Source: Candidatus Magasanikbacteria bacterium RIFOXYD1_FULL_40_23 (GTDB taxonomy: Bacteria > Patescibacteriota > Patescibacteriia > Magasanikbacterales > GWA2-37-8). From it: a stretch of DNA of 64,000 nt. Shown piece after piece: positions 17,280-49,133 of the stretch. Position 1 is the first letter of the stretch. Each line of letters starts with the position of its first letter. Both the position numbers and the translations under genes were made by a program. Below the pieces are notes generated by a model, which saw nothing but the letters and a program-made list of their open reading frames with translations, did not search any database and was not told the DNA's origin. The stretch covers positions 157,449 to 221,448 of the forward strand of contig MFRA01000001.1 of the NCBI GenBank assembly GCA_001783215.1. Reading direction: 5' to 3'.

Positions 17280-17311
17280 ATTTTGTGAGCGCCGTTTAGA
17301 TCATGTGGATT

Positions 17312-33317: not shown

Positions 33318-33414
33318 TGGCTGACTGTCGCTTGTCCGATTTGCTTGCGCATTTCAGGCTTGCGAACTTCCGACTGTTGTCATGAGTGTCGGAGAACTCT
33401 CCTGATTCCTGCCG

Positions 33415-35664
33415 CTACAGGTTCGTGTTGGGCGGACCCGTCAACACCGTGACCGGCGTTGCGCACTGCAGATCCCAGGTGATCCCACTCGGCGGATTCG
33501 CATCCGTCGCGTGGCCTGGCAGCAGCGAACACCCAGTGGTGTATCGACGCGCACTGTCCTGAACTGCCCCTGGCGTCCAGATGCTCGATCCGCCCACAGG
33601 CATGACCGTGAGGAACGACGCGTAGTGGCAGGTGATGGCACAGACGCCATCGGGACCTGAGACCTTGTTGCCGACGAGGGTCAGAACCTGCGGAACTCCC
33701 GTTGCCGACCAGCCCTTGCAAACATCTATGCTTGGCAGATCGGAGTTCTTGTAGAACGCCTCCATTCCGTGACACATCGTGTTGGCGGGCGGAGCGGTCA
33801 CGCTGATGTTGACGAACTTGGTGATGGTGCCACCAGCGACACGGGTGCAGGTAAGCGTGTAGGTGTGCGTCGCGATCATCGTGGGGTTCACGATGATGTT
33901 GCCGTCCACCGGACGATCACCAGTCCAGGCGTTGCTTGCGGTACAAGCGTCGGCGTGGGTGCTATCCCACTCGAGCTTGTAACCACCACCCAATTGCACG
34001 GCCACAGGCGTGGCAGTGAGAGTCAGCGCCAGATCGGGCAGTTGCGGAGCCGTTACGGTCACGTCGGCCGTCGCGTTCACGCTACCACCAGGGCCGGTGC
34101 AGGAAAGCTGGTACTTGGCATCGCTGGTGGGGCTAACCACCAAGGTGCCATTTACCGGCTTCGATCCACTCCAGCTACCCGTGGCCGTACAACTCGTCGC
34201 GTTGGCCGTGCTCCAGCTCAGCGTGCTGCTCTGCCCCATGGTGATGGTGGCAGGCGTTGCGCTGAACGAGAGCGTTGGAAGCGGATGTTGAACCACGGTC
34301 ACAGTCGCCGTGCGAGTGATCTGCTGTCCACCTGGACCGTTGCAGGTCGCGGTGTAGGTCTTCGTTGCGTTCGGGCTGACCGTCATCGTTCCGCTGGTCG
34401 GCTTTGACACCGACTCGATCGTACAGCTAGTCGTGTTCGTACTCGCCCAGCTCAGGCAGCTGCTATCACCGGCGTCGATCGTCGATGGGGAAGCAGAGAA
34501 ATTGAGCGTGAGCAAGGGGTTGACGGTCACAAGCGCGCCGCGAGTGATCGACCCTCCAGGACCTTCGCAGGTCAAGGAGTAGGTCGTCGTCGAGGTCGGC
34601 ATGAGATTCGTCCACGAACCGCTCAAGGGTTGTGTCACCCAGTTGCCGCTGCTGTTGAGGCTACGGCAACTCGTCGCGTTCGCGCTCGTCCAGGTCACGG
34701 TCGTCGTCCCGCCCACATTGATAGTGGCTGGGCTGGCCGTGACGGTCAGAGTCGGAAGCGGCGGAGGCGGTGCGGCGTTGACGACCACAGTAACCGAATC
34801 GGTGACCACATCGTATGAACTGTTGTAGCAGGTCAAGGAGTAGGTCGTCGTCGTGGTCGGCATGAGTCCCGGCCACGATCCATCGATCGGCTGGGGTACC
34901 CAGTAGCCGCTAGCGTTCAGGCTCAAACAGTTCGTAGCGTTCTCGCTGTTCCAGCTCACTGTGGTGCTCTGCCCCACAGTGATGCTGGTCGACGTCGCGG
35001 TGACGTCGAGGGTCGGCAGTGGCGGTTGGATCACGGTCACGGTGACCGATCCATTGTAGCCATGGCCATCCAGACCAGTGCAAACCACCGTGTAGGCGGT
35101 CGTCTGGATCGGAGAGACCACGAAGGTGCCGTTGGGCATCTGCGACCACGTCTCGCTGTTGGTACAGCTCGACATGTTCGTGCTCGTCCAAACCACTGTG
35201 GCGCTCTGCCCCCTGCTGATTGTCATCGGAGTCGCCGTGACTTCGAGAGTCGGATCCGGCGGCGGAGGCGGCTGGATCACCGTCACATCGACGTGATCCA
35301 TGATGCCGACGCCGTTAAGACCGGTACACACCACCGTGTAGGTGGTGTCCACGGTCGGCGAGACCGTGTAGGTACCGTTGACCGGCTGGGACATGCCCAT
35401 GCTGGTGCAGTTGGCCGTGTTGGTAGACAGCCAGTTGATCGTTGCGCTCCCACCGAGGTTGATCTCCATCGGCGTGGCAGTCACGACCAAGGTCGGAGCA
35501 CCGGGCGGTGCATCCGGCGGCGGTGCGTCGGGCGGGGGCGTCGAAGCATCCTCTCCCATCGCATCCACCTCCGGCACGCTGCCGTCGGCTCCCAGGCCTT
35601 GTCCATCCACGACACATGCGGTGACCGAAGCCACCAGGAACAGCAAACTGATTGCCTTACGCAT
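33415..35664 (-). CDS. lipoprotein with about 7 tandem Ig-like domains (about 85 aa each, conserved Cys pair)
   Basis: GGAAGGAG RBS and lipobox VTAC. Repeats follow the pattern PTLxVTATPxxIxxGQSxTVxWxSxNATSC....TYTLTC. High GC. Confidence 0.65.
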   Translation of the reverse strand: MRKAISLLFLVASVTACVVDGQGLGADGSVPEVDAMGEDASTPPPDAPPPDAPPGAPTLVVTATPMEINLGGSATINWLSTNTANCTSMGMSQPVNGTYTVSPTVDTTYTVVCTGLNGVGIMDHVDVTVIQPPPPPDPTLEVTATPMTISRGQSATVVWTSTNMSSCTNSETWSQMPNGTFVVSPIQTTAYTVVCTGLDGHGYNGSVTVTVIQPPLPTLDVTATSTSITVGQSTTVSWNSENATNCLSLNASGYWVPQPIDGSWPGLMPTTTTTYSLTCYNSSYDVVTDSVTVVVNAAPPPPLPTLTVTASPATINVGGTTTVTWTSANATSCRSLNSSGNWVTQPLSGSWTNLMPTSTTTYSLTCEGPGGSITRGALVTVNPLLTLNFSASPSTIDAGDSSCLSWASTNTTSCTIESVSKPTSGTMTVSPNATKTYTATCNGPGGQQITRTATVTVVQHPLPTLSFSATPATITMGQSSTLSWSTANATSCTATGSWSGSKPVNGTLVVSPTSDAKYQLSCTGPGGSVNATADVTVTAPQLPDLALTLTATPVAVQLGGGYKLEWDSTHADACTASNAWTGDRPVDGNIIVNPTMIATHTYTLTCTRVAGGTITKFVNISVTAPPANTMCHGMEAFYKNSDLPSIDVCKGWSATGVPQVLTLVGNKVSGPDGVCAITCHYASFLTVMPVGGSSIWTPGAVQDSARRYTTGCSLLPGHATDANPPSGITWDLQCATPVTVLTGPPNTNL

Positions 35665-35687
35665 GAGAATCTCCTTCCGTAACGGTT

Positions 35688-35796
35688 GAGTGAGGCCGAA
35701 ATGGCCACTTGATGGCCACCATGGCCGAGAAACTACTCGGAGCTTACTACTTGTTGCCTCCGAATTAAATAAATATATTTTTTATATTTACTAAAT
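35688..35796 (-). promoter_or_regulatory. island 5' leader module L1 (near-identical to L2 at 36846..36963)
   Basis: About 110 nt and about 92% identical to L2. Contains two TGGCCAT direct repeats about one helical turn apart, a CTCGGAG/CTCCGA hairpin and an AT-rich promoter-like tract. Runs into the GGAAGGAG RBS and ATG of gene 2. Confidence 0.6.
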
Positions 35797-35903
35797 TCGA
35801 AGGCAACTTTTTGATTTTAATTTACTTTGGTTTTTTGAAAAGAACGCTTTTGTTTTTTAAGCTTCTCATCCTCCTAAATTTAATTAAGAAGATAAGATAC
35901 TAT

Positions 35904-35940
35904 CGCGACGTGTTCTCTGTATGAGAGAGAACACGTCGCG
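35904..35940 (-). terminator. hairpin H2 downstream of island gene 3 (covaries with H1)
   Basis: CGCGACGTGTTCTCTgtatgagAGAGAACACGTCGCG. It sits in the same position and after the same aagaagata motif as H1 but has a different stem sequence. Confidence 0.45.
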
Positions 35941-35987
35941 AACGCCTGCCTACACTTCCGATCGCTCGGTTGCGTAGATTGCGCTTG

Positions 35988-36812
35988 TCAGAACCAGCCG
36001 GTCCTGATGCCCAAACGGACACCCAGACCGAATCCGGTCCACCTGCCGACGTACATCGGCTCGGTGCTTACGGCTCCGACCACATCGGCGAACATGCCGA
36101 AGTGTTCCCAGTTGCCGGCCAACCGCAAGCCTGCATCCACGGCACGGAGCTGAACCAGCTCCTCTCCGGGATCGTCGACGTTGGAACAGAAGCTGAGGTT
36201 GACGGTGGGGCCGAGACCGAAGTGATCGCTGCGCTTGTTCAAGAGCGCCGCACCGGCCGTGGCCGCCACCTCGCTCTTGCCACAACCACCAACGCCAACG
36301 TTGGCGCTCCACTCCCAGGAACGGGTGTTGAGCGTCCCGACGAAGCCGGCGGTGAGCATCTCTTCGACGCTCTCGTCGTACCCGTCGCGATCATCGCGAG
36401 GTTGGAGCAGGACGAACCCACTGCCGAACAGGCCACCGCCAAAGCGGTACCTGCTCGTCTCCACCACCGTCACCGGGAACGGATCGAGCGTGACCGCCGG
36501 CGAAACCGCCGGTGCCTCCTCGTCCTTGCCGTTGTAGGTGTGGTTGATCACCTCGACGCACGCCGTGTCGATGTTCTTGACCGTGTGGATGACACCGGTG
36601 ACGGCGTCGACTTGGATCTCGGTGCGCGGCTTGCCCTCGGCACAGTCATCGTCGACCGGGACGACGCTGGTCTCCACCACCACATCGGCGGGAGGATCTT
36701 CGTTGCTCTGGGCTGCGACTTCCTGCGCCATCATGCCGATGAGGCAGATGCTGGCAAGGGTCAACAGACCATTCTTCTTCCACTGCATGTGCGAAACCTT
36801 CTTGACGAACAT
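35988..36812 (-). CDS. secreted protein with beta-barrel OMP-like C-terminus (ends ...GIRTGWF)
   Basis: GAAGGAG RBS before the ATG at 36812 (MFVKKVSHMQWKKNGLLTLASICLIGMMAQEVAAQ signal peptide). C-terminal alternating hydrophobics ending in Phe. High GC. The track began it at 36833. Confidence 0.55.
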   Translation of the reverse strand: MFVKKVSHMQWKKNGLLTLASICLIGMMAQEVAAQSNEDPPADVVVETSVVPVDDDCAEGKPRTEIQVDAVTGVIHTVKNIDTACVEVINHTYNGKDEEAPAVSPAVTLDPFPVTVVETSRYRFGGGLFGSGFVLLQPRDDRDGYDESVEEMLTAGFVGTLNTRSWEWSANVGVGGCGKSEVAATAGAALLNKRSDHFGLGPTVNLSFCSNVDDPGEELVQLRAVDAGLRLAGNWEHFGMFADVVGAVSTEPMYVGRWTGFGLGVRLGIRTGWF

Positions 36813-36845
36813 GGCGAGTTCTCCTTCTTCCAAAAACTGGTTGCG

Positions 36846-36963
36846 TGAGGCCGAAGTGGCCAGTAACGATGGCCACCATGGCCGAGAAACTTCTCGGAGC
36901 TTACTACTTGTTGCCTCCGAATTAAATAAATATATTTTTTATACTTACTAAATTCGAAGGCAA
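36846..36963 (-). promoter_or_regulatory. island 5' leader module L2 (duplicate of L1)
   Basis: See L1. Differs mainly by a 2-nt indel in the spacer between the TGGCCA hexamers. Confidence 0.6.
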
Positions 36964-37001
36964 TGTTTTTTGTTTTGTAAAGAACTTTTCCAATTTTTTC
37001 T

Positions 37002-37110
37002 TTTCACCACTCGCCTTTGCTTTTTGCTTCGGCGTAGCGAAGTGATGAGCAGAAAATTTGGGAGGAAGGGAGTGGTTGGTATTTCTCCAACAAGACTTCC
37101 CTTCCTCTTT
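37002..37110 (-). terminator. island 3' module B (duplicate of module A)
   Basis: ttttcaccactcgcctttgctttttgCTTCGgcgtagCGAAGtg...GAGGAAGGGAGtggttggtatttctccaacaagaCTTCCCTTCCTC, downstream of 37138..38025. Confidence 0.5.
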
Positions 37111-37137
37111 GACGACTGCCTCGAACTACTCGAGGCG

Positions 37138-38025
37138 CTACTTGCGCGTCACCTTGGCCGGCCGCGGGGTCTTCGGCGGCGGACCAGGGTGATTGACGGT
37201 CTTAATCCTGACCGTCACGGGCTTGACCGTTTCTTCTGCGGGCATCCCGGGCAGATCGCTTACCTTGATCCGATCCATCTTCTTGATCTGCTCAACATCG
37301 AGCTTGATGGAGTCGATGTCCTTCCGGACGTCGACCATCTGCTTGTTCAGCTTGCCGATGGCGGTCCACTGACCGCGCTGTCCCTTCTCGAATTTCTCGA
37401 GCTTCTCCACCCGCTCCTCGATCGTGGGCGGATCCACTTCCTCTTCCTGCGCAGCAGCACGCTCCGCACAGGGATCGTCGGCGGGAGCAGCTTCCTCCTC
37501 GGTCTCCTCCTCTTCGGTAGGCGTCACCACAGCCTGAGGCTGAGGCACTTCCTCCACCGCCGCGGGCGCGGGAGCCGGGGCGGCGACCGGCGGCGGAGCG
37601 TTCTCCGTCGGGGCAGCAGCACCGGAACCCTTGCCCACGTTGGTGACCTTGGTGCTGGCGGACTTGGACGAGTCCGAGCCACCGGACTTGAGCAGCATGA
37701 CGACGACGCCGAGAGCGACCAGGATCGCGATGGTGATCGCGAAGACGGTCCACGACTTCTTGTCGTCGGGCGGCGACGGGTCCGGCTGCTGGTACTGCAT
37801 GGTCTGCGGCGGCAGATTGATCTGCGCCGTGGGCGCCGCCGACTGCTGATACTGCGGCGGGAGCGTCGGGGGCGGGAGCGTCGGCTGGGGCGGGCTGCTG
37901 GGCAGCGGACGCTGCGGGGCCGGCGGCATGCCGGGGAGCGGGCGCTGCGGACTGATGGTCCCAGCAACAGGGGCTTGTGACCGAACAGTGGGCGAACCAT
38001 ACGGGGGCGTGGTCTTCTGCGGCAT
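37138..38025 (-). CDS. Pro-rich, single-pass membrane-anchored coiled-coil protein
   Basis: AAGGAG RBS. N-terminal PxxP-rich region, TM helix WTVFAITIAILVALGVVVMLL, Ala/Pro/Glu-rich linker, then C-terminal coiled-coil (EERVEKLEKFEK...). Two alternative high-GC frames were rejected. Confidence 0.6.
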   Translation of the reverse strand: MPQKTTPPYGSPTVRSQAPVAGTISPQRPLPGMPPAPQRPLPSSPPQPTLPPPTLPPQYQQSAAPTAQINLPPQTMQYQQPDPSPPDDKKSWTVFAITIAILVALGVVVMLLKSGGSDSSKSASTKVTNVGKGSGAAAPTENAPPPVAAPAPAPAAVEEVPQPQAVVTPTEEEETEEEAAPADDPCAERAAAQEEEVDPPTIEERVEKLEKFEKGQRGQWTAIGKLNKQMVDVRKDIDSIKLDVEQIKKMDRIKVSDLPGMPAEETVKPVTVRIKTVNHPGPPPKTPRPAKVTRK

Positions 38026-38191
38026 GGCGGTCTCCTTCTGTGTCTACCGAATCGTTGACTCGTGAGTTTCTTTCCCGCCTGATCAAATTGATCTTGCGAG
38101 AATCCACGAGTTGAAATACGTTGCTGCTAACTAATTCAAGGTACTACTTTTTTCTTTTGAACGACCACCTTTTTATCAGTGATAGTTCCAA

Positions 38192-38228: not shown

Positions 38229-38450
38229 GCAAGCTTAAATGCCCTTTATTGATCTGTTTAAATGGCTAAAACAACACCTCTCAATATTGCTCTAACCTCT
38301 AAATTTTCAACGATAGGCCACTATACCATAAAACCTAGTTTTTGTCAATAGGATGACAGGGGGAAATTATCTTTTTGGCTAACTACAAACAAAAAGTACC
38401 CCTTTTTAGAGATACTCTTTGTTTAAAATTTATAAAACTAAGTCATTTAG

Positions 38451-41400
38451 CTATTCAATAGGCGCGCCCGGCTCATTTTTTAGCATATCATTTGCCAGAT
38501 TTACTGCCTCTTCATAAGAATATTTTTGTACAATTTTTCCATCATCCATCTTTAATAAAACACCATCTTTAACGACAAAGGTATTATCCAAATCAGAAAT
38601 AAGAAATTCTTTACCTTCTCTGTCTGTAATTCTAGCAATATGACTATCGTTGGCCAGCATTTTAACACCGTCTTTATTAGGATCTAAAAATAATTTAAGC
38701 TCTTCACCTTCAAGATTTTTGTACCAATCCGGATTCTTATCTATATGATTAAACGCATCCAGTGTATCCTTCATTGTTCTGACGCTTTCAACTACTTTTT
38801 CATCTAAATTAGAAACATCGCCGGCAAAAACTTTTTTGGCATACTCTTTAAAGCTTGCCATTGACGGCTCATTTTCTATTTGTTTTTTAAGTATATCTTG
38901 GCCATCACCTACCATAATAAATTCCGTTTTTTGCAGCGCAATATTAGCTTTCATTGATTCAAAATTCTGATACATAACTTTAAAGCTTTCCACACTTTTC
39001 TCTGTCAATTCTGCAGGTTCTCCTGCAATCGCTTCGCTCTTTTCTGCCTGCTGCTTAGCGGACTCTTCTACTGTAGGTGATACTGGTTTTATTTCAGATG
39101 TTGACTTCGCAGTGTTTTCTAAACTAGTTTTAATTTCTACCTGCTTCGCTCCAGGAGCTGCTTGCACCACTTCCCCGCTAGCCTTAAAAGTTTTGATTGT
39201 TTTACCAACTAAAGTTTTTTCTGTCGTAGTTTCTTCACCTACTACCTCTGGTCCTTGAATATCATTTATAATATTGGCATTTGCCCAAAGCTTATCATCA
39301 ACAGACATTCCGTCATTGATACTTGTTCCGTTTAAGTTACCGGCTTTTTCTTTGGCTGCATTTATCACATATGTTCCTACGGGCTCTCCAGCACGTGCTC
39401 TATCAGAAATATTTATTGCTTCTTCTCCCATTTTGGCAAACTTAGCTTTGTCTGCTTCAATTTCTGCAAGTACAGCGCGATCACCCTCTGGCAACTCGAC
39501 AGCAGGAGCGTTTTTAAAATCACCTTCGTATGGAGCCTCTTCAATTGTTGTAGGAGAAGTTGTAATTTTAACCATTACCGTTTCTTTCAAAACCACTCTG
39601 CCCTGACCGCTCAAAATAGGTTCACCTTTTTCATCTAAACCAAAATATTTAAGCTCACCACCCTGCAAACTTACAGTTCTGCCAGTTCTATCTTCGGTAG
39701 CAGCCCTAAAGAAACCGGCATTGGCCAAATCTGTATTACCCTTGCCTTGCATGGCTCTAAATAAACCATAGACCATCTTTTTATCTGGTTTTTCGTCGTA
39801 TTGCTCTACAAATTTTAAGTAATCTTCGTGCGTGCCTTTGCCAATATATTCGGCCAAATAAGATTTATGCCTACTACTAAAATCTTGACTCTCCAAATAT
39901 TTAGCCGCACCTTCATAATCTTTTGCTTTTACAAGTTCTTCAAAAATTACAGATCTGCGTTCGCCTTCAGCCTCTATAAGAGTGTCTACATCGCCACGAA
40001 CAAGATCGGCATGATGGAATTTAACCCCATCACCCACTTTACTTGCTTCCAAAATCCTACTCAAGGATTCTTCTTTTAAGCTTGGATACTGTTCAACTAA
40101 TTTTTGTAACGGAACCAAGGACTCTTCACTTAATTTATGTTCGGCAGCAAAATCTTGCACAGAAAATAGTGCTGTTTCTGGTGCTATTGCTTCCGGAACT
40201 GGTTCTACACTAACCGTATTCACTGGCGCCACAATATCTTCTTTTGGTAATTCGGCAACTGAACTTGGCAATGCTATTTCTGGTGCAATACTTTCATGTC
40301 CAGTTACCTTGTCCCAAGCGCTCTCAGCTAGATGTCCAATATTTCCTGGGGTCTCCCAAACACGCTTTGCGTTTTGTACAAAACTATCAGATATAATAGA
40401 TGCATCTTTTTCTTTTATCGCTTGGATTAAATTATCTATACTTTCTTTTGGAGAACCTCCATGCAAAACTGTGATATTAAATATACCCACGCCGCGAGCA
40501 ATGGTGCCCAATGCTTTTACAAAATCCATAGCTCTAGCGACACCAGAAGAACCTTCCTTGGCGCCACGGAAAGTAAGCGCACGAGCAGTTTCTTTAGCAG
40601 TACTTGATATTATATCTTTCGTAAATGTTTTTGCATCTTTTTTGTCTTTTAAAGAGCCGGCGATATCTTTTATTTCTTCTTTTTTAACTTGCTTTATTTT
40701 TTCAAAAGCAGAAGCAGCAAGATACACTGCACCTCGCAACAAAGAAATGCCGGTAACTGTAAGTCCTAAATTTAAAGCGTCTTTGGCAATTTTAACTCCC
40801 GAAACTTTTCCATGTATATATGATTCTAAAAGCTCTCTCACTTCACTATCCCTATCATTTCTAGACTTAGTTGTTTCTGTTTTATGTTTTATGGAAATAG
40901 CCCATAATCTTTCTAAAATTTGTTTTTTGGCTTCTTCTTTAATATTTGCAGATCCAATTTTTTCTTTCAAATACTCTATACGTTTTTCAATTCGTTCATT
41001 TTCTGACAAAGCCTCCCCTTTTTTATTTTTTTCGGAAGCCACTAATAAATCTTGGTGGGCTGCAAAAATACTTTCTACGGCTGTTTTGGATTCTTTTGAT
41101 CCCTTTCTCCATTCTGCAAAATCTCCTCTTCCAGTTAAACCACCATATACAATATCTGTAATAATTTTTACACCAAAAAGAGTGGTTACAGTATCATAGC
41201 TTGCTTTTCCAATCGCAAGCCCAAATTCTTTACTAATGACAGCTTTTTTTAAACCGCTCGCTTTTTCTTTTACCCAACCCCACACACCTTTTTTCTCAGG
41301 AGCAGGCGCTGCCGGTACTTGAGGAGATATCTTTTGTATGAATTCCGCATGCAATTTTGGATAGTGTTTTTGCAAATCCTCTGCAAAAGCTTGCATATTA

Positions 41401-44045
41401 TAAAGAACCGTTTCATCCAATTTATTGTGCTGAGACATTTCTTTCTTAGCTTTATCAATATTCGTACGGATAACTTCCATTCTCCATTTAAAACTTTCCA
41501 TAACTTCCGGATTACCACTATTTTGTATAATTTTTTCTAAGGTACCAAAATCACGCTCATACATTTGTAAAAGCATTTTCTGTTCTGGAGATGGAAGGTT
41601 TTCTTCCCCAGATATTCGAGCTGTCGTAGGCGTCTCTAATGTATTTTTATCTGTTTCTGGAAAAGGTAAATCTACAGATGTCGGTTGAGATTTTTTATTG
41701 ATTTCAGCCAACCTACCATAAAATTTATTTTTTACTTCTTTTAACTCTTCTGGTAAGGTCAACTTACCAAAGGCTCTCATCAGTTTATCCAATTTTTCTT
41801 CGTATACATCTTCATTGTCCAAATTATTTTTTGCCTCTGCTATAGCATCCTTTACAGCTTGCAAGTCAGCAGTAAACTTAACACGTAAATTTTTATCCTG
41901 CTCATCCATTACCATCTCAAACAAAGACAAATCATCTTCTGTCTTCTTTATTCTATTTTCATATTCCTCTCTTTCCTGCTTTGTTCCAGAAGTTTCTTTT
42001 CCATTTAATCTAAGCTGATGCTCTTTTTTTACATTATTAGGAAGGGAATTCCACAACTCATTAATTAATACTTTTGCTTCCTTTAAATGAAGCTCGTGCG
42101 CCACACTGTCTTTTTCTACCAAACTTGCCTTCGCCTTATTTAAAAGCTGTATTGCAGCATCTACTAATAAAGATGTACGAGTTTCATAAAAATTATAACT
42201 TTTGTCTTTGCTATGAAAACGCTGTCGCATTATACGTTCAACCATCTTTATTCTCCTTATCTCTTCAAGGATAAGATCTACCCCTGAATCTTTGTCTTCT
42301 ACCTTGTCTTTAATTTCTTTTATAGAAGTCGTATCTTTTTTAACCATCTCTTCTCTTCTCAAAGAAGGTGTCTTGTCGGCAAGCTGGCTTTCGTACTCTA
42401 ATTTTACTTCTGATGGGACTTTGGTCAAAAGTTCAGTAAAGGCACTTTCGGCTCTATCTATTTCTCTGCTATGTACTCGAGGATTTCTGGCATGGTAAGT
42501 AAGGTCCAAGCTTTCCTCAATTTCTTCAACTAAAGACCTAATATTATCTGCTTGATCATCGGTCAAAATTTCTTCGGCAATATTTTTAAACAAAGCAAAC
42601 TTATCGTTCATTTCTTGATATCTTTTTTGTCTATATTCTGGAGCATCTTTATCAACAACCGCATCACCCACTACGACACTTGATTCTTTTTCGTCTTTTT
42701 CAACAACTGGTACCACTTTTTTCTTTTCACCTTTACCCAAAGAAGCTTTCTGGAGATTAAATTCTTTTCTTACCGCTTCTGAAACATTCAAAAAAACTTT
42801 GGTAAAATTGTGTTCAAATACTCTAAGCTGCTCTCTATATTCATCCCAATCATCGGTAGCTTCTATTTTTTCCAAAGCACTTTCAATTTTCTCTTCGTTT
42901 TCTTTGGTTTCTGCTCTTTCTTCTTTGGTCATTTTTTCCATAGCAAGAGACCTAAGCAACTCCCATCGCTCATCCGCATATTGCAATGTTTTATCCCTAT
43001 CTTCTTGCCAGTCTTTTTCCACAACTGGTTCTGCTTCTTTTTCTTTAGTCTTAACCTCTTCCTTTTCCCAGAATGGAGGGTTACCATTTAACTGACTAAA
43101 ATATTCCAACCTTGCTTTTGTTGGAATAGTGCGAATGATTAAATCAAAATTACGTTCAAACGCCGACATGGCGTTTTCGTATTCTTCTGCGTCATTAGAT
43201 TCAAGCGCTGTTTTTAAACCACCATTAATCGCATCCGTGGTTTCTTCGCTAACCGAACCTTCTCTCAACATTTTACCTATTATTTCCTGGAGAATATCCC
43301 ATCTTTTAACAGCATCCTGGTGTCTTTCTACTCTCTGCTCTTGCCCATTCTCAACAGCACCAGCTTTTCTTTTAGAGGCCTTCTTGGTTTTGTGCTCTGG
43401 CTTTTCTTTTTCGTCTTCTTCAGGCTCCGGCTGTAATTGTTCTGGAACCGCAATTTCTTTAGAATCAGTCTCAGCCTTATTTTCTCCTTTTTTTATATCC
43501 AAGAGAGCCAAGGTCTCTGTTTCTATTTCTAATTTTTTAGCCTCATAGCCTGCTGGGTCTTTAATCTCTAACAGTTCGGTAATTTCTCCCTTTATTTTTT
43601 TATATTTTCCAAAATTTTTAAACAAAACATTATCGCTCGCACTAGACTGTCCAACCAAATGCAACCTAGCTTCTTCGAGGTCTGCAAACAATTTAGCCTG
43701 CTCTATTTCTCTATCTTTTTTACCTTTATACTCTTTGAAGCTAAACGGCTTAGCTTCTGCCGATTTTCTTTTGGAATTTTTTGCTCCTTGAAACTCCAGC
43801 CCCAGGCTAGCAATTTCTAAATGAATTTTATTTTTAAATTCTTTTTTATTATCTGCACCATCATAAGAATCTAATTTTTCAGAAATCTTTCTTAAAGCCA
43901 AAATAAGATGGTCTTTTTTATCTTGAGGTATATCGGCCGAATTAATTTCGGCCTCTAACGAAGCCAGCCTAGTAGCTGTATCTTTTTGAAATGTGCTTTC
44001 ATTTTTATCTGGGGACGATCCCCTCTCCGGACCTCTTTTTGCCAT
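38451..44045 (-). CDS. giant K/E-rich surface/membrane protein (1864 aa), hypothetical
   Basis: The first about 900 aa are highly charged coiled-coil. A central region has hydrophobic helices (GLAIGKASYDTVTTLFGVKIITDIVYGGLTG, LNLGLTVTGISLLRGAVYLAASAF). The C-terminal region is globular. Start set at ATG 44045 (MAKRGPERG), which directly abuts the conserved leader. The track TTG at 44066 is less likely. Confidence 0.7.
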   Translation of the reverse strand: MAKRGPERGSSPDKNESTFQKDTATRLASLEAEINSADIPQDKKDHLILALRKISEKLDSYDGADNKKEFKNKIHLEIASLGLEFQGAKNSKRKSAEAKPFSFKEYKGKKDREIEQAKLFADLEEARLHLVGQSSASDNVLFKNFGKYKKIKGEITELLEIKDPAGYEAKKLEIETETLALLDIKKGENKAETDSKEIAVPEQLQPEPEEDEKEKPEHKTKKASKRKAGAVENGQEQRVERHQDAVKRWDILQEIIGKMLREGSVSEETTDAINGGLKTALESNDAEEYENAMSAFERNFDLIIRTIPTKARLEYFSQLNGNPPFWEKEEVKTKEKEAEPVVEKDWQEDRDKTLQYADERWELLRSLAMEKMTKEERAETKENEEKIESALEKIEATDDWDEYREQLRVFEHNFTKVFLNVSEAVRKEFNLQKASLGKGEKKKVVPVVEKDEKESSVVVGDAVVDKDAPEYRQKRYQEMNDKFALFKNIAEEILTDDQADNIRSLVEEIEESLDLTYHARNPRVHSREIDRAESAFTELLTKVPSEVKLEYESQLADKTPSLRREEMVKKDTTSIKEIKDKVEDKDSGVDLILEEIRRIKMVERIMRQRFHSKDKSYNFYETRTSLLVDAAIQLLNKAKASLVEKDSVAHELHLKEAKVLINELWNSLPNNVKKEHQLRLNGKETSGTKQEREEYENRIKKTEDDLSLFEMVMDEQDKNLRVKFTADLQAVKDAIAEAKNNLDNEDVYEEKLDKLMRAFGKLTLPEELKEVKNKFYGRLAEINKKSQPTSVDLPFPETDKNTLETPTTARISGEENLPSPEQKMLLQMYERDFGTLEKIIQNSGNPEVMESFKWRMEVIRTNIDKAKKEMSQHNKLDETVLYNMQAFAEDLQKHYPKLHAEFIQKISPQVPAAPAPEKKGVWGWVKEKASGLKKAVISKEFGLAIGKASYDTVTTLFGVKIITDIVYGGLTGRGDFAEWRKGSKESKTAVESIFAAHQDLLVASEKNKKGEALSENERIEKRIEYLKEKIGSANIKEEAKKQILERLWAISIKHKTETTKSRNDRDSEVRELLESYIHGKVSGVKIAKDALNLGLTVTGISLLRGAVYLAASAFEKIKQVKKEEIKDIAGSLKDKKDAKTFTKDIISSTAKETARALTFRGAKEGSSGVARAMDFVKALGTIARGVGIFNITVLHGGSPKESIDNLIQAIKEKDASIISDSFVQNAKRVWETPGNIGHLAESAWDKVTGHESIAPEIALPSSVAELPKEDIVAPVNTVSVEPVPEAIAPETALFSVQDFAAEHKLSEESLVPLQKLVEQYPSLKEESLSRILEASKVGDGVKFHHADLVRGDVDTLIEAEGERRSVIFEELVKAKDYEGAAKYLESQDFSSRHKSYLAEYIGKGTHEDYLKFVEQYDEKPDKKMVYGLFRAMQGKGNTDLANAGFFRAATEDRTGRTVSLQGGELKYFGLDEKGEPILSGQGRVVLKETVMVKITTSPTTIEEAPYEGDFKNAPAVELPEGDRAVLAEIEADKAKFAKMGEEAINISDRARAGEPVGTYVINAAKEKAGNLNGTSINDGMSVDDKLWANANIINDIQGPEVVGEETTTEKTLVGKTIKTFKASGEVVQAAPGAKQVEIKTSLENTAKSTSEIKPVSPTVEESAKQQAEKSEAIAGEPAELTEKSVESFKVMYQNFESMKANIALQKTEFIMVGDGQDILKKQIENEPSMASFKEYAKKVFAGDVSNLDEKVVESVRTMKDTLDAFNHIDKNPDWYKNLEGEELKLFLDPNKDGVKMLANDSHIARITDREGKEFLISDLDNTFVVKDGVLLKMDDGKIVQKYSYEEAVNLANDMLKNEPGAPIE

Positions 44046-44066
44046 ATACGATATGAGTGAGTGCAA

Positions 44067-44125
44067 AAGTTAAATGTATTTAACTTTACACGAGCGAATG
44101 AGTATATATGCGGCTTTAGCCCATA
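44067..44125 (-). promoter_or_regulatory. ACTCATTYCG leader element abutting the giant-gene start
   Basis: Minus strand: atatatGGGCTaaAGCCgcatataTACTCATTCGCTCGtgtaaagttaaatacatttaacttttgcaCTCACTCATATCGTAT-ATG. Confidence 0.45.
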
Positions 44126-44146: not shown

Positions 44147-44437
44147 TTAAACAATGGAATCAAGTGCTTTTATAGTATCAGCATTTACCTTTCCCAATTC
44201 TTCTTGAAACTTATCATCTACGGCCTGTAAATCGTCAGCTAGCTTTTTATCTGTATCTTTGGTAGCGGCTTGTAAATATTTGACCTCCAAAACATTTGTA
44301 AATTCTTCTAGTTGAGCCTCCGTCATTTGCGGCAACAGAGACAACAAAGCCTCCCTTTCTTCTTCTGAAATATTTAAGGAAGCAATAAGTACTCCTAATT
44401 TTCTACCTTTTTCTTCGGCTGTTTGTAAATCTGACAT
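44147..44437 (-). CDS. hypothetical small acidic helical protein
   Basis: 96-aa ORF between the Wzz-like gene and the giant gene. Confidence 0.45.
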   Translation of the reverse strand: MSDLQTAEEKGRKLGVLIASLNISEEEREALLSLLPQMTEAQLEEFTNVLEVKYLQAATKDTDKKLADDLQAVDDKFQEELGKVNADTIKALDSIV

Positions 44438-44451: not shown

Positions 44452-45078
44452 TTACCCTCCAAACAAATTATGTTTTTTGTATCGGATTACCCACAAAGAG
44501 AAAATTAAAAAGCCTACCAAAAATCCTACCGCACCATTTAGTGGCACGCTAGGGCGTACTGGCCATTTGGAAACAAGTGGTTCGCTTACTATTTTGATAG
44601 CAACATCTCCACCCAAATATTCCCAACCTTGAGTAACCAGTGTTTGAGAAACTGCTTTGGACAGCGCAGCTGCTTCGGCCTGGCTATAGCTAAAAACTTT
44701 TACATTCATTAGACTAACACCATAAAGCATGTTGGCAGAAATATCTTTATTCCATTTTTTTCTTTGTCCACGGTCTGTTAATTTGGACCAGGGAGTTTTA
44801 TCAAAAGAAGCTGGAGAGCTCATTACTTTGTTATAAAAATCAGTAGTCTTCATGATTTGAGCCAAATTCGCGCCGATTTTTTCGGCAGATCTTGCTTGAG
44901 TGTATGGGTCTGTGCCTTCTTTGTCTCTAGATATAATTAGAACCTGACTGGTAGCACTATACTGCTTTGGAAAAAACAGACTACTAACCATGGATAAAAT
45001 CGCAAAAACAAAACTCCAGACTAATATTAGTTTTATGTTTTTAACTAGCAAGTGCCACATAACGGTTGAAATTAACAA
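44452..45078 (-). CDS. polysaccharide co-polymerase (Wzz-like chain-length determinant) family protein
   Basis: N- and C-terminal TM helices around a periplasmic-type domain (...PKQYSATSQVLI...). Confidence 0.5.
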   Translation of the reverse strand: MLISTVMWHLLVKNIKLILVWSFVFAILSMVSSLFFPKQYSATSQVLIISRDKEGTDPYTQARSAEKIGANLAQIMKTTDFYNKVMSSPASFDKTPWSKLTDRGQRKKWNKDISANMLYGVSLMNVKVFSYSQAEAAALSKAVSQTLVTQGWEYLGGDVAIKIVSEPLVSKWPVRPSVPLNGAVGFLVGFLIFSLWVIRYKKHNLFGG

Positions 45079-45164: not shown

Positions 45165-46229
45165 TTACTTTGTTGCTACAACTTTAACTTCTACTTCCAA
45201 AGTTTTACCAGATCTTAATATTTTTACTTTTACGCTTTCGTTGTTATTTATAATATACCATAAATTATCGGGCGCTACAATTCTACCATTAACTTCTAAA
45301 AGCAAATCGCCTTTACGCAACACACTGCCAACCGACCATACACCTGAAACCAAAAAACCACGGGCCTTTTCTCCCGCCTTTAGCTTGGTTTCCGAAACAG
45401 TAAATATTGTCTGCTCTTCACCAAACCATCCCTCTACTCCCAGAGACGGATAAGACAAAGCTTGCTGGCTTAAAACTTGAGATAAAACTCTGGTAATATA
45501 AAACCCAGGCAATAATAAATTATTATCTGCAACAAAACCAACTACTCTACCTTGATTATTTATAGCAATCTGCCCGGCATTAAAGGATCCGTTTAGGGAG
45601 TAGGATTTTATCGGAGCAGTGTCTAAATGAGGAATTTTGTAATTAAAAATTGGATAAAGTACTGTGCCATGATACCAATTATCATTTTGCCAAACAAAGA
45701 TATCGTCCAAATCAGACCCTTCGTCTGCAAATCCAACCACTTTAAACTGTTCGTTTTGAATTTTCAAATAAAGAACGCCGGAATATTTATCCCAAACAGC
45801 TTTTTCTGGTTGAAAAATATTTCCACCGTCGACTGCTATATAGATATTTTTATAATTTCCATCATAACGAGGCTGATACATGGCAAGCCAACCGTCTGAG
45901 CTTAACATAATGCCATCCCCTATTTTTTTATTAAAATAATTTACACCACCTACGCTGGTTGTTCCTCTATGCACAGACACAACCCGAGTAGAAATTTCTT
46001 CTCGTATACGAGTCTCTAGCTGTGCTCGCGACATTCCAGAGTTGGTATAAGAAGTTATCCATACATCACCATCAGCAAATCTTGGCCAAATCCATCCGAT
46101 CATCATGCTTGCGCCGCTGGCACCAGCAATAACGCTAAAAACAACTATGGCCAACAGTAATTTAAGCCTTTGTAAGTGGCGATGGGTTTCTATACTGCTA
46201 GTTTTAGGCGGAAGGTGTGGAGGAACCAT
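45165..46229 (-). CDS. membrane-anchored PDZ domain protein
   Basis: N-terminal TM segment. C-terminal PDZ-like GDLLLEVNGRIV...VKVKILR. Confidence 0.5.
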   Translation of the reverse strand: MVPPHLPPKTSSIETHRHLQRLKLLLAIVVFSVIAGASGASMMIGWIWPRFADGDVWITSYTNSGMSRAQLETRIREEISTRVVSVHRGTTSVGGVNYFNKKIGDGIMLSSDGWLAMYQPRYDGNYKNIYIAVDGGNIFQPEKAVWDKYSGVLYLKIQNEQFKVVGFADEGSDLDDIFVWQNDNWYHGTVLYPIFNYKIPHLDTAPIKSYSLNGSFNAGQIAINNQGRVVGFVADNNLLLPGFYITRVLSQVLSQQALSYPSLGVEGWFGEEQTIFTVSETKLKAGEKARGFLVSGVWSVGSVLRKGDLLLEVNGRIVAPDNLWYIINNNESVKVKILRSGKTLEVEVKVVATK

Positions 46230-46345: not shown

Positions 46346-47143
46346 TTATTTCCAACGAACTACAAAAATTAAAAAGCTAATAAATAAAACTGTGTTTATT
46401 CCCAAAAACCATATTTGTTTTTTCCAAACTATACCTTCGGGAGTAAGATTAAATCTCGCCATAAGCCAAGCCATATACCAACACCAAATTAAAATTAGAC
46501 TGCTAATCAAATAACCCAGCGGCAAAAGATTTACCACCCAAAGCAATTCTAACATGAGCACAAACCATAAACCAACCCATACCCAAAAACGTTTGTTTAC
46601 GCTAGCACCATACTCTAACCACCACCAACCAGCAAAAAGTGCAGCACATATGGCTGTGATCACAAACCAAACCATAGCACTTACTCCTGGCACAATCTGA
46701 AAAGAAACAATAGCTTGAGCGCCTTCAAATATGCCGGCCAAACCAATTATTGACATAACAAAACGCCAACGCAGGTGGGGTTTTAAAAATACAGACAAAC
46801 TGACGTTGGAAGATGGCAATAACCAAAAACTGAAAAAAGAGAAAAAGGAAAAAAATGCTCCAAATAAATACCAAGCAAAGTTCCATTCTATAAACAATAG
46901 AAACGCCATTGAGCCTATGGTCATTACCACTAGCGACAGCAAATGTTTAAGGCGACTCATTTCTTTTGGATAATAAACCACCAACATAAATGCTAACCAG
47001 ACAAGCGTACGGATAATTAACCACATACCCACCATCCACCAAGCATTGAGCTGTTTTACCCACCCCAGCATTATGAGGTTTATAAACAAATCCAGCACGG
47101 CTGCCAGTTTTGGATGGAAAGATATTGGCTTAAAATTAAGCAT
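46346..47143 (-). CDS. hypothetical multi-pass membrane protein
   Basis: 265-aa ORF with about 8 TM helices. Confidence 0.5.
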   Translation of the reverse strand: MLNFKPISFHPKLAAVLDLFINLIMLGWVKQLNAWWMVGMWLIIRTLVWLAFMLVVYYPKEMSRLKHLLSLVVMTIGSMAFLLFIEWNFAWYLFGAFFSFFSFFSFWLLPSSNVSLSVFLKPHLRWRFVMSIIGLAGIFEGAQAIVSFQIVPGVSAMVWFVITAICAALFAGWWWLEYGASVNKRFWVWVGLWFVLMLELLWVVNLLPLGYLISSLILIWCWYMAWLMARFNLTPEGIVWKKQIWFLGINTVLFISFLIFVVRWK

Positions 47144-47308: not shown

Positions 47309-47542
47309 CTAGATTTGGCAAACAGCCTGGTTCAGCTTGCAGAACGAACTGACCATCTTGTATGCAAAGTACTGAAACTCTGCAACCGAACCAGCACACA
47401 ACACACCCAGCCAAAACACTGCTACCGAGATGATAACACACCTGGCGATGTTATTGGAAATGCGCGTAAGGCTTGATTCTTGCCGAAGGTACGGGTACAT
47501 GGAGAACCCCCTGTTTGACTTTAGGGATTTTGAAGCTGCCAC
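47309..47542 (-). CDS. possible small membrane protein (GTG start); competes with + ORF 47231..47476
   Basis: Contains a TM-like segment CVIISVAVFWLGVLCAGSV. The strand assignment is uncertain. Confidence 0.2.
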   Translation of the reverse strand: MAASKSLKSNRGFSMYPYLRQESSLTRISNNIARCVIISVAVFWLGVLCAGSVAEFQYFAYKMVSSFCKLNQAVCQI

Positions 47543-48267
47543 GAATCGGCTGCTCTGTACTTACAAACAACTGGTGACCAGAGCGGCTTTCTCACGGAGC
47601 TGAGAGTGTGAAGCATAGTACCTCGACCATCGCATTCATCTGGAAAGCGCTCGCCACTCATCTCCGCTTTTAGCTTGGCAACCTCTTCTGCGCCCAGCTG
47701 CTTCTCCAGCTCTGGCGAAAACCGAACTTCTTGCTCGGTCTCAACAGCAGATGACATCTGCGCTTCCATAATCACACGTCTTTCCTCGAGCTCTTTGGCC
47801 TGACCATCGGAATGGCTGAGCCTAACCGGACCGCAATATGATTCATAAGCCAGATTACTACAGGCTCTTTCCTTCATATCTCGACGGACAATGAACTCCA
47901 CCTCTTCGGTATAACGTGGAACACGACCACTGAACGAGCCGTCTTGGTGCCTTACCGGCAGCATCGTTACGGTGTATGAACGCCCATCATATTGGTAGCG
48001 CATTTCCACCAAAAACGGAATTTCCTTACCTGAGAACCTGTTCTGGTAAGGTTTCTCCAACACCTGAAGAGTATAAGTTTCAACATCATACCCATCAAGA
48101 TTGCCAGGATCCAAACGTTGATCCAAGCGTACTGTCTGCCTACAAGAATCGCTCTTGCAAACATTCTGTCCGTTAGGACCAGCACAGCCACAGCTATACA
48201 ACATGATAGCTAGGCCAATAAGGATAGAAACCAAAGTAATCAGCAGTCTGCGCATCGACATGGCCAT
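47521..48267 (-). CDS. hypothetical secreted/anchored protein
   Basis: GGAGG RBS before ATGGCCATG (MAMSMRRLLITLVSILIGLAIMLYSCGCAG). GC is above background. The track began it at 48345. Confidence 0.5.
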   Translation of the reverse strand: MAMSMRRLLITLVSILIGLAIMLYSCGCAGPNGQNVCKSDSCRQTVRLDQRLDPGNLDGYDVETYTLQVLEKPYQNRFSGKEIPFLVEMRYQYDGRSYTVTMLPVRHQDGSFSGRVPRYTEEVEFIVRRDMKERACSNLAYESYCGPVRLSHSDGQAKELEERRVIMEAQMSSAVETEQEVRFSPELEKQLGAEEVAKLKAEMSGERFPDECDGRGTMLHTLSSVRKPLWSPVVCKYRAADSWQLQNP

Positions 48268-48486
48268 TGCCTCCGTACTCCCCTTTTGCTGGGAAGATTT
48301 GTTTGGTACTACATGCGTAGAGCACTTACTCCAACGCACATACAAACAATCAATTTAAATTACTTGTATGTGCGTTAGAATTTTAAATTTTTAAATAACA
48401 AATACTTTCTCAACCATCTCTATTTTTAATAAAGATGATAATTGAAAGTGCGAAATATCTCGCACCGTATTTAAAGAGCAAATCGA

Positions 48487-48978: not shown

Positions 48979-49133
48979 TATTACCACCCTTCCGAAATGT
49001 GATTAACCCAAATTGCTCGGGTAAATGTTCCGCTTATTTAGCGGATGGATTAAATTAACATAAAAAATATAAGCTGTCAAAGCTGGACACTTAATATGTT
49101 TTTTTGATACTATTAGGCCCAAAGGAGAACGAC

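Follow-up and report, generated by a model that had tools for sequence, protein, structure and literature searches.

Organization of the locus

The analysed DNA of Candidatus Magasanikbacteria, a stretch of 64,000 nt (the window), carries a complete gene coding for a giant protein (GenBank OGH93376.1; UniRef100_A0A1F6PB35) that is annotated as a hypothetical protein (Table 1). As the sequence-only reading had stated, no other ORF in the window is longer. An alternative TTG codon upstream, at position 44066, would extend the product to 1871 aa, but the orthologues start with MA(K/R)K..., which favours the ATG.

Table 1. Coordinates of the giant gene, its encoded domains and the neighbouring features within the window
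Feature	Position	Strand	Basis or remarks
Giant-protein CDS, complete	38451..44045	-	ATG start; 1864 aa; stop codon 38451-38453
C-terminal domain, aa 1679-1859	38469..39011	-	AF2 pLDDT 83-97
Variable acidic linker, aa 1495-1678 (~185 aa)	39012..39563	-	AF2 mostly low-confidence
Module B, aa 1290-1494	39564..40178	-	AF2 pLDDT 93-98
Core A, aa 906-1250, family signature domain	40296..41330	-	Coverage of relatives, invariant columns
Helix H3, mildly hydrophobic, aa 1173-1197	40455..40529	-	G1180, R1184, G1187 conserved
Helix H2, mildly hydrophobic, aa 1089-1115	40701..40781	-	Invariant N1092 and R1104
Helix H1, mildly hydrophobic, aa 950-972	41130..41198	-	Motif xYxTxTSxxGxKxxxD
Acidic N-terminal arm, aa 14-906	41328..44006	-	AF2 model, self-BLAST, repeat HMM
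Conserved leader element between partner gene and giant gene	44046..44125	-	Fold z-score -3.8
Partner gene g96, 96-aa acidic helical protein (OGH93377.1)	44147..44437	-	Alignment and locus contexts
Wzz/polysaccharide co-polymerase-like protein, two TM helices, 202-208 aa	44452..45060	-	Pfam PF02706, E 4e-8
354-aa protein: N-terminal TM anchor, extracytoplasmic domain, weak PDZ/DegP-like C-terminus	45165..46229	-	
265-aa polytopic membrane protein, 7-8 TM, W/F-rich	46346..47143	-	First gene of five-gene cluster

The giant gene closes a cluster of five genes, in which it is preceded by those coding for (i) the polytopic protein, for which no family match was obtained, (ii) the PDZ-like protein, (iii) the Wzz-like protein and (iv) g96. 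The cluster is kept in 10 genome loci, each from a different genome, as well as in a relative at 34% identity; the Wzz-like gene is syntenic in all orthologous loci, and the position of the giant gene beside SmpB/IF3 is kept across species. A g96 homologue (96-110 aa, acidic, helical) was found 0-40 nt upstream of the giant gene in all family loci examined, including those of four distant members, and a profile search of the PDB with g96 retrieved only ferritin-helix noise. In distant relatives the pair formed by the giant gene and g96 occurs without any Wzz-like gene. Such distant members lie amid housekeeping genes, and mobile, phage or secretion genes are not present there. We infer that the five genes are co-transcribed and that the giant protein contacts the products of its partner genes.

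Wzy_C and GHL15 genes are located near the cluster, and no secretion-system gene was found in the operon. Immediately downstream lies a hypervariable island, syntenic and GC3-rich, which codes for secreted, Cys-rich proteins.

The start codon of the giant gene directly follows a conserved leader element of approximately 75 nt, in accordance with the earlier description. This element consists of a hairpin (TATATGGGC-TAAA-GCCGCATATA), TACTCATTCGCTCG, a second hairpin and CACTCACTCATATCGTAT, followed by the ATG. Three copies are present in the window (0.23 expected by chance), two of which end exactly at an ATG. An Rfam search with the element gave no match. The orthologous loci lack it at this position, where the two genes are separated by 3-11 nt.

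The giant gene is real and intact. An identical 1864-aa product is encoded on 13 contigs from at least six independent assemblies made with different assemblers (DNA identity of the gene 99.7-100%), and full-length orthologues are present in other species. An interrupted ORF and a collapsed repeat had both been named in the sequence-only reading as possible flaws; the ORF proved intact and identical in the other assemblies, and no DNA tandem repeats were detected in the gene. The internal repeats of the protein and the anomalous GC content of the flanking region might be taken as signs of an assembly or annotation artefact, in the form of a repeat collapsed during assembly or of a chimeric ORF. 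However, these repeats are just 25-33% identical at the protein level (self-BLAST), which, together with the agreement between assemblies and the orthologues in other species, leaves the artefact explanation with a practically negligible likelihood.

A family of related proteins

Exhaustive HMMER searches identified 184 relatives of the giant protein at E<=1e-3; under the stricter limit of E<=1e-30 the number is 31. The family thus defined comprises at least 184 sequence clusters. This search mode was essential to the result: a word-indexed search returned nothing with the full-length query, only its own fragment with aa 900-1500, and 10 sequences with a 26-sequence profile. The taxonomically informative labels of the relatives' genomes are Parcubacteria, Magasanikiibacteriota and Patescibacteria, and the others are MAGs with generic or doubtful labels. 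Judging from these comparisons, the giant protein is a member of a previously undescribed Patescibacteria/CPR family, which is defined by the invariant residues of core A together with a homologous small gene directly upstream, in every locus examined. Closer relatives carry two conserved alpha/beta domains behind core A, and in the present lineage a long, strongly acidic arm stands in front of it.

No match above threshold was obtained when the giant protein, five of its relatives and the separated domains were compared with Pfam, NCBIfam and PHROGs. Sub-threshold Pfam matches to DUF3347 and FliS, both within the helical arm, were rejected as helix noise. A PDB sequence search with the giant protein (single sequence and profile) gave only coiled-coil or apolipoprotein noise, and a literature search revealed no mention of the family or its accessions. 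It had been proposed that this is one of the giant surface or tether proteins typical of small-genome symbionts and largely uncharacterised. The host does belong to the small-genome Patescibacteria/CPR, and the protein is uncharacterised with respect to all of these resources, but nothing shows a surface or tether role.

The giant protein diverges much faster than its operon partners. Between orthologues, the identity amounts to 40-46% for core A plus module B and to approximately 15-20% for the arm; the partners reach 51-73%, and IF3 83-91%. The protein contains no cysteines (approximately 13 expected) and is rich in E (12.4%) and K (11.6%).

Domain architecture of the giant protein

The N-terminal half was originally described as an extremely charged, low-complexity coiled coil of about 900 aa. 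The high charge was borne out (charged fraction 0.29-0.46 per 100 aa in the first 900 aa), but the other two attributes were not. SEG masks nine short segments, i.e. approximately 7% of the protein, and the mean 40-aa entropy of the N half (3.6 bits) equals that of the rest (3.55-3.77 bits). The AF2 model shows, instead of a coiled coil, short helices arranged in approximately eight discrete helical-bundle modules (aa 14-95, 103-192, 228-338, 342-436, 469-555, 586-680, 686-785 and 820-906), with pLDDT values of 75-90 for the modules and low confidence for the linkers between them. The helices (15-34 aa) are joined by tight turns of 2-5 aa (model of aa 1-1200), and Pro or Gly occurs each 20-50 aa across most of the arm. 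The last 5-6 modules are diverged sequence repeats of 112-125 aa, as revealed by self-BLAST and a repeat HMM; an HMM built from repeats R1-R3 alone recovers R4 and R5 (E 2.5e-4 and 8.5e-4, respectively). The arm has a net charge of -31, and its length before core A varies from 4 to 1311 aa between relatives. Two general classes were considered for this region and rejected, namely (i) long coiled-coil fibrous proteins, such as SMC arms, M protein or HMW2, which have helices of at least 100 residues and a continuous heptad, in view of the short arm helices, and (ii) low-complexity or disordered K/E-rich proteins, in view of the SEG and entropy values.

Core A is a basic helical domain of approximately 340 aa, which is covered in about 124 of the 150 relatives listed. 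Its invariant residues are Y950, G958, K960, D964, G974, D975, K1080, N1092, R1104, G1180 and G1187. The charge of this domain (+4.4 net charges per 100 aa) is opposite to that of the rest of the protein (-4.4), and this pattern is general: among 95 relatives, core A is net positive in 92% and the rest is acidic in 99%.

The last 300 aa or so had been regarded as globular. The confidently modelled C-terminal domain is shorter (approximately 180 aa) and follows a disordered acidic linker, in front of which lies a second globular domain, module B. The latter has an alpha/beta fold (eight helices and a four-strand sheet in the AF2 model), with invariant polar residues including H1344, E1358, E1362, R1363, E1369, E1370, Q1433 and N1442, and is kept in 25 of the 150 relatives listed (three-round jackhmmer). 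A fold search with module B gave no informative match. A relationship to lytic transglycosylases, suggested by 'AMQG...ANAG' motifs, was considered and dropped, as the spacing of these motifs does not agree with that family and neither a profile nor a fold match backs it. The C-terminal domain is composed of helices, a six-strand beta meander and a final helix, contains the motif ...(P)ILANGSHAxRIWD..., and is kept in 13 (phmmer) or 24 (jackhmmer) relatives.

Hydrophobic helices of core A

The central helices H1-H3 had been put forward as probable TM helices, but they are too polar for classical ones. Their Kyte-Doolittle 19-aa peaks reach only 1.25-1.48 (1.48 being the maximum for the whole protein), and each contains a conserved charged residue: K960 and D964 in H1, R1104 in H2, and R1184 in H3. 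Within the protein, hydrophobicity is highest in H2, and the best stretch for insertion (aa 1093-1111) has a predicted energy of +3.7 kcal/mol on a Hessa-type scale. Ten TM helices in the products of the three adjacent membrane-protein genes score -1.8 to +0.4 kcal/mol on the same scale. With such an unfavourable energy, the giant protein was not assigned to the integral (Sec/YidC-inserted) membrane proteins. A segment exceeding a Kyte-Doolittle value of 1.6 is present in 17 of the 150 relatives listed and absent from 133. All flanks of H1-H3 are net positive (H1-H2 loop, +5; H2-H3 loop, +6), which argues against an alternating in/out topology. The polar motif of H1, together with the hydrophilic, mostly acidic N-terminus that precedes H1 in the short-arm members shown, indicates that this helix is not a signal anchor. 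The AF2 pLDDT over H1-H3 is just 47-62, and their packing is not modelled reliably.

No signal peptide is present, in agreement with the initial description: the N-terminal sequence is hydrophilic, and hydrophobic windows are absent up to aa 625. A Sec/Tat-secreted or lipoprotein precursor was rejected on the basis of the N-terminus (MAKRGPERGSSPDKNESTFQKD...) and the lack of a hydrophobic window in the first 600 aa, which holds also for the relatives listed. Inspection of the translation likewise led to the rejection of a Gram-positive wall-anchored adhesin, the C-terminus (...MLKNEPGAPIE) being devoid of LPXTG and of a hydrophobic tail.

Predicted location and role

We infer for the giant protein a cytoplasmic location, docking to the membrane and a role at the envelope. 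Our tentatively favoured model, which we regard as possible, is that of a scaffold which is tethered to the membrane from the cytoplasm and forms part of a complex for envelope assembly. The entire protein would remain on the cytoplasmic side. Core A would act as a peripheral or monotopic anchor that docks to the anionic inner leaflet, to the membrane partners or to both. The acidic arm, whose length depends on the lineage, would stand off the membrane and serve as a spacer or as a platform for assembly. The complex as a whole may work in the assembly of the cell envelope or of surface polymers. Consistent with the scaffold model are the charge pattern (basic core A, acidic rest), the lack of both a signal peptide and a classical TM helix, the conservation of g96 and of the five-gene cluster, and the housekeeping context of distant members. 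Several observations point the other way. The lack of cysteines and the fast divergence would fit an exposed protein, and the acidic linker behind H3, rich in Pro and Glu, is similar to linkers that span cell walls. Moreover, the domains of the three operon partners are mainly extracytoplasmic, and so the working side of the complex may be outside. For the basic core, nucleic acid or an anionic wall polymer would be equally plausible ligands.

The main alternatives differ in where they place the protein. It could be an integral membrane protein with three TM helices (N-in/C-out), with the 900-aa arm in the cytoplasm and module B and the C-terminal domain outside, possibly meeting the external domains that the Wzz-like and PDZ-like membrane partners carry. 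The three conserved helices (20-27 aa) are indeed the sole hydrophobic segments of the giant protein, with a K-rich amphipathic stretch before H1 and acidic, Pro-rich sequence after H3. However, the insertion energy, the invariant or conserved charges inside the helices, the equally positive loops, which conflict with the positive-inside rule, and the 133 listed relatives lacking a sufficiently hydrophobic segment make this topology unlikely. We consider similarly doubtful that the protein is a surface fibre or tether exported by a non-Sec route, with g96 as a dedicated export chaperone, the arm as a stalk, and core A and the C-terminal domains contacting or entering the host envelope in episymbiosis. 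Such an arrangement would be in keeping with the CPR host, the absence of cysteines, the fast divergence and variable arm length, the small acidic helical protein encoded directly upstream (a feature shared with the chaperones of some secreted substrates), and the surface-biogenesis locus (Wzz-like, Wzy_C, GHL15) beside the hypervariable island. On the other hand, no signal peptide, LPXTG or S-layer-type anchor was seen in the translation, no gene of a secretion ATPase or channel lies in or beside the cluster at any locus examined, Pfam revealed no adhesin-type beta-rich repeat, and distant members have housekeeping neighbourhoods. In addition, the Cys-rich proteins of the adjacent island show that the organism does not exclude Cys from its exports.

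The conserved small gene would be accounted for if the giant protein were a tape-measure-like protein of phage origin or the translocator of a secretion system, with its small chaperone encoded directly upstream, a layout similar to that in phage lambda (G/GT-H) or to that of type III translocators and their chaperones. This origin is very improbable, as PHROGs (0 families) and Pfam gave no match for the giant protein, genes for tail, baseplate, capsid or secretion are absent from all loci examined, the adjacency to SmpB/IF3 is kept across species, and the 10 genome loci come from 10 different genomes. As regards type III translocators and type VII LXG substrates, Pfam detected no LXG or translocator domain, and neither the 64-kb window nor the related loci contain apparatus genes. 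Finally, the giant protein, g96 and the three membrane proteins could together form an envelope-spanning, Patescibacteria-specific machine that builds or deploys host-contact structures, with the acidic arm on one side, the two novel-fold domains on the other, core A coupling them, and the downstream island supplying cargo or variable parts. We consider this elaborate scheme rather improbable.

Patescibacteria/CPR account for much of bacterial diversity, and little is known of how they build their envelopes and attach to hosts. Starting from a single hypothetical protein, the present analysis defines a family that comprises at least 184 sequence clusters and is marked by a signature domain and a constant partner gene; the Magasanikbacteria-like clade has, in addition, a conserved five-gene membrane cluster. 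Among these components the Wzz-like protein alone resembles a characterised protein. Module B and the C-terminal domain, which fold confidently in AF2, and the invariant residues of core A offer targets for experiments. If the giant protein is an ordinary cytoplasmic scaffold, the gain in annotation would be modest; if it belongs to a surface or host-contact apparatus, it would bear on the main question of the CPR lifestyle.

Comparison with known systems

The best, albeit non-significant, Foldseek matches of the arm (TM-score 0.08, probability 0.33) are vinculin, alpha-catenin and talin, which, like the arm, are built of tandem helical bundles and act as linkers at the membrane and the cytoskeleton. 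However, these proteins are eukaryotic, share no sequence similarity with the giant protein, and have no counterparts of core A, module B or the C-terminal domain.

Phage tape-measure proteins are also long and helical, contain Gly-rich hydrophobic segments in their middle part and have a small acidic gene immediately in front of their own. In contrast to them, the giant protein matches nothing in PHROGs or Pfam, and its gene lies in a conserved chromosomal housekeeping context free of phage genes. Its assignment to this class was rejected, since no TMP profile matched and no related locus contained phage genes.

In the case of Wzz/PCP systems (PF02706), it is the adjacent gene that fits (44452-45060; E 4e-8, two TM), whereas the giant protein shows no resemblance to Wzz (Pfam gave no match), and BY-kinase, Wzx and Wza partners are not encoded in the five-gene cluster.

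HMW2 of the Mycoplasma terminal organelle is likewise a giant (approximately 1800 aa), charged, helical and cysteine-poor protein without a signal peptide, encoded by a genome-reduced host. HMW2 is, however, mostly a continuous coiled coil, whereas the arm helices fold back into bundles, and no homology between the two was detected.

EzrA is a membrane-associated bacterial protein composed of repeated helical bundles of approximately 100-120 aa, which serves as a cytoplasmic scaffold for the envelope and division machinery. The repeats of the arm match those of the EzrA type in size, and the spectrin-repeat class consists of three-helix bundles of approximately 106 aa.

Identity and family of the giant protein

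Analysis of the minus strand revealed a single, uninterrupted ORF (38451-44066), the largest of the window, as the sequence-only reading had stated. Since orthologues have matching N-termini (MARKTPENG, MARSKEEG and MAKSKEKS), the ATG at 44045 was assigned as the start codon, which gives a protein of 1864 aa (MAKRGPERG...), deposited as GenBank OGH93376.1 / UniRef100_A0A1F6PB35 ('hypothetical protein A2563_02080 [Candidatus Magasanikbacteria bacterium]'). E and K account for 12.4% and 11.6% of its residues, and cysteine is absent, whereas 13 cysteines would be expected from the Cys content (0.70%) of the window's other ORFs. The window is bacterial (tmRNA, SmpB, IF3 and tRNA-Asp are present; GC ~37-42%). 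Thirteen contigs, drawn from six or more independent metagenome assemblies, encode exactly the same 1864 aa at loci sharing 99.7-100% identity with the window, and Tandem Repeats Finder detected no tandem repeats in the gene. The ORF is thus neither interrupted elsewhere nor a collapsed repeat, and it is hardly conceivable that it is an artefact.

When 1.84 billion representatives were searched exhaustively by phmmer, with aa 900-1864 as the query, 184 relatives reached E<=1e-3, of which 90 reached E<=1e-10 and 31 reached E<=1e-30. A word-indexed protein search, in contrast, missed nearly all of the family (0, 1 and 10 matches). We think that this was caused by K/E-rich words filling the list of 8000 candidates; other charged giant proteins may likewise seem to be orphans in such searches. 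Median length among the relatives is 1131 aa, 53% of them are cysteine-free, all of the N-termini inspected are hydrophilic, and only 17 of the 150 listed contain any segment above 1.6 on the Kyte-Doolittle scale. Their genomes are labelled Parcubacteria group, Candidatus Magasanikiibacteriota or Patescibacteria group; several third-party assemblies carry the label 'uncultured Gammaproteobacteria', which we take to be generic, and one is labelled Udaeobacter.

No Pfam domain or informative name was attached to any relative that the annotated search returned, and profile, sequence and fold searches found no characterised counterpart of the conserved domains (core A, module B and the C-terminal domain; see the table) or of g96, the small protein encoded upstream. 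No test of membership in known families was positive for the giant protein, and no mention of it was found in the literature. Because none of these linked either protein to anything characterised, we rate the family as lying outside every known kind, 'unknown' owing as much to missing data as to demonstrated strangeness. Orphan families of this sort abound in CPR genomes. The giant gene is real, and its family, which is conserved, has clear boundaries and lends itself to testing.

Domain organization

The N-terminal half (charged fraction 0.29-0.46 per 100 aa) had been described as low-complexity coiled coil. SEG masks only ~7% of the protein, and the entropy of this half equals that of the remainder. 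Self-comparison revealed diverged repeats that recur every 112-125 aa, and an HMM built from three copies found two more independently (E 2.5e-4 and 8.5e-4) as well as a marginal sixth. In an AlphaFold2 model (aa 1-1200, 16-sequence alignment) the arm is predicted to form a chain of eight small, discrete bundles (module pLDDT 75-90), with helices of 15-34 aa, instead of a long coiled coil. The length preceding core A varies among relatives from 4 to 1311 aa and that following it is steadier (interquartile range 486-695 aa); the long arm is thus a lineage-specific elaboration.

The absence of a signal peptide was confirmed, but the central 'TM helices' did not hold. The three hydrophobic segments, each with a conserved charged residue, reach maxima of only 1.25-1.48 (Kyte-Doolittle, 19-aa window). 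In a simple Hessa-type calculation the lowest insertion energy in the protein was +3.7 kcal/mol, compared with -1.8 to +0.4 for ten true TM helices of three neighbouring membrane proteins; by both measures the protein has no classical TM helix. The flanks and loops of the three helices are all net positive (+5, +5 and +6) in a protein that is net negative throughout elsewhere. In a set of 95 relatives, net charge per 100 aa is +4.4 for the core, which is positive in 92% of them, and -4.4 for the remainder of the protein, which is negative in 99%. Low hydrophobicity, unfavourable insertion energy and this charge pattern place the segments within a basic, conserved domain of helices, core A, which is present in ~124 of the 150 relatives listed.

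The last ~300 aa had been considered globular. An AlphaFold2 model (aa 900-1864, 26-sequence alignment) retains a confident C-terminal domain, restricts it to part of this region and adds a second domain, module B; the linkers between confident globular domains are disordered, acidic and Pro-rich. Among the 150 listed relatives, module B is kept in ~25-50 (phmmer coverage) or 25 (jackhmmer), and the C-terminal domain in 13 (phmmer) or 24 (jackhmmer).

Features of the giant protein and its locus (nt, window unless a locus is named; aa, giant protein)
Feature	Position	Remarks
Arm bundles	aa 14-95, 103-192, 228-338, 342-436, 469-555, 586-680, 686-785, 820-906	AlphaFold2; low-confidence linkers between
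Core A	aa 906-1250	invariant Y950, G958, K960, D964, G974, D975, K1080, N1092, R1104, G1180, G1187
Hydrophobic segments	aa 950-972, 1089-1115, 1173-1197	Kyte-Doolittle
Module B	aa 1290-1494	AlphaFold2, pLDDT 93-98; eight helices, four-strand sheet
C-terminal domain	aa 1679-1859	AlphaFold2, pLDDT 83-97; helices, six-strand meander, final helix
Cluster gene 1		polytopic membrane protein, ~265 aa
Cluster gene 2 (g354)	45165-46229 (-)	354 aa; TM anchor, weak PDZ/DegP-like C-terminus
Cluster gene 3		two-TM Wzz-like protein, ~203 aa (PF02706, E 4e-8)
Cluster gene 4 (g96)	44147-44437 (-)	96-aa acidic helical protein
Cluster gene 5	38451-44045 (-)	giant protein
Cys-rich ORFs	47521-48345, 48487-48987 (-)	274 and 166 aa
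Leader copies, window	32036-32049 (+), 44091-44104 (-), 53777-53790 (-)	
Leader copies, related genomes	L007 14299 (-); L015 10661 (-), 11908 (-)	
High-GC island	32375-38100	
Island, other loci	L007 ~14000-19000; L009 ~13000-18000; L012 ~9000-12000; L013 ~9000-13700; L015 ~9000-13000; L020 ~8000-12500	
Sigma-70 promoter (predicted)	38283-38348 (-)	TTGACA, 17 nt, TG-n-TATAGT

Gene cluster and leader element

A co-directional five-gene cluster, which runs divergently from SmpB-IF3-L35-L20, ends with the giant gene both in the window and in every orthologous locus. Four distant family members (993, 682, 1005 and 2100 aa) are located in different, housekeeping neighbourhoods, and all have a g96 homologue of 107-110 aa (27-29% identity) upstream: immediately so in three, with a 63-aa ORF between in the case of the 2100-aa relative. 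The g96 homologues share the motif KLxxLL...LLPxMSxxQI...LExxYL. What is conserved is thus a two-gene module (g96 plus the giant gene). Across orthologous loci, identity is 83-91% for IF3, 51-73% for the four partners, and only 40-46% (core A and module B) or ~15-20% (arm) for the giant protein, whose length ranges from 1110 to 1974 aa.

SmpB and the cluster are separated by two Cys-rich ORFs for which no family match was obtained. They are absent from the orthologous loci L007, L009, L010 and L012, in which the 265-aa membrane gene directly follows SmpB, and are probably a lineage-specific insertion. Two contigs encoding the identical giant protein (L004 and L006) depart from the window upstream of ~46590 (46588-46629), a SIMPL-domain gene replacing the 265-aa membrane gene in L004 (1-1200), which points either to rearrangement of the cluster head at strain level or to an artefact of the contig ends.

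The conserved leader element reported at the giant-gene start is real: the window contains three copies, compared with 0.23 expected by chance. It spans ~75 nt and consists of a hairpin, TACTCATTCGCTCG, a second hairpin and CACTCACTCATxTCGTAT; the two-hairpin fold has a z-score of -3.8, and neither an Rfam match nor an internal Shine-Dalgarno sequence was detected. Two copies terminate exactly at an ATG (the giant gene and ORF 53222-53731). The copy at 32036 (+), with no ORF after it, is placed at the far edge of a high-GC island and, together with the inverted copy at 44104 (-), brackets the island and the giant gene. Partner and giant gene are separated by 3-11 nt in most orthologues examined, whereas in the window a 101-nt gap contains the element. 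In this species the element has therefore been inserted into the operon, where it may serve as an internal promoter or leader.

The downstream high-GC island

Directly downstream of the giant gene, GC content rises to 0.52-0.62 (~0.37 around), and GC3 is 0.60-0.82 in island genes but 0.27-0.30 in the giant gene and in g354. At least seven different species show this compositional jump at the equivalent syntenic position. The island is no assembly chimera; it may have arisen through a recurrent horizontal-transfer hotspot or through a local GC-biased process. The products, only 28-34% identical between species, are secreted or surface proteins: one is Pro-rich with a TM helix, others have signal peptides, and one of 749 aa (ORF 33415-35664) is lipoprotein-like and carries ~8 Cys-containing Ig-like repeats. 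At 34764-34828, within this gene, assembly L001 (ERZ4902915) is offset by a repeat unit, and its two BLAST pieces overlap by ~200 nt (L001 19021-19218), which suggests that the copy number of the ~95-aa repeats varies within the population. The AT-rich spacer between the giant-gene stop codon and the first island gene (ATG 38025, preceded by GGAGA) contains a near-consensus sigma-70 promoter, so the island genes appear to be driven by a predicted host-type promoter.

Possible role of the giant protein

We tentatively regard the giant protein as a scaffold that is tethered to the membrane on its cytoplasmic side, given (i) the lack of a signal peptide and of classical TM helices, (ii) a basic core in an acidic protein, (iii) an obligate small partner gene, (iv) co-location with three membrane proteins and (v) the housekeeping context of distant members. 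In this model the anionic leaflet or the membrane partners would serve as the docking site of core A, the acidic bundle chain would project as a spacer or platform, and the protein may work within an envelope or surface-polymer assembly complex. The zero cysteine content, fast divergence and surface-locus context would also suit an exported surface tether with g96 as its chaperone, which is nevertheless unlikely, as the protein lacks an export signal and no export machinery is encoded nearby. It is similarly doubtful that the protein spans the membrane three times with its C-terminus outside, a topology opposed by the insertion energies of the helices and the charge distribution around them. 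A tape-measure-like or translocator-like protein seems very improbable, and what expectation remains falls to other functions, e.g. a basic core that binds nucleic acid or a wall polymer.

Foldseek comparison of the arm with PDB structures gave no significant match; the top-ranking ones were vinculin (E 0.013), alpha-catenin, talin and designed helical repeats, each of them a tandem helical-bundle protein. In its predicted architecture, the arm would work like the tandem helical-bundle linkers vinculin, catenin, talin and EzrA.
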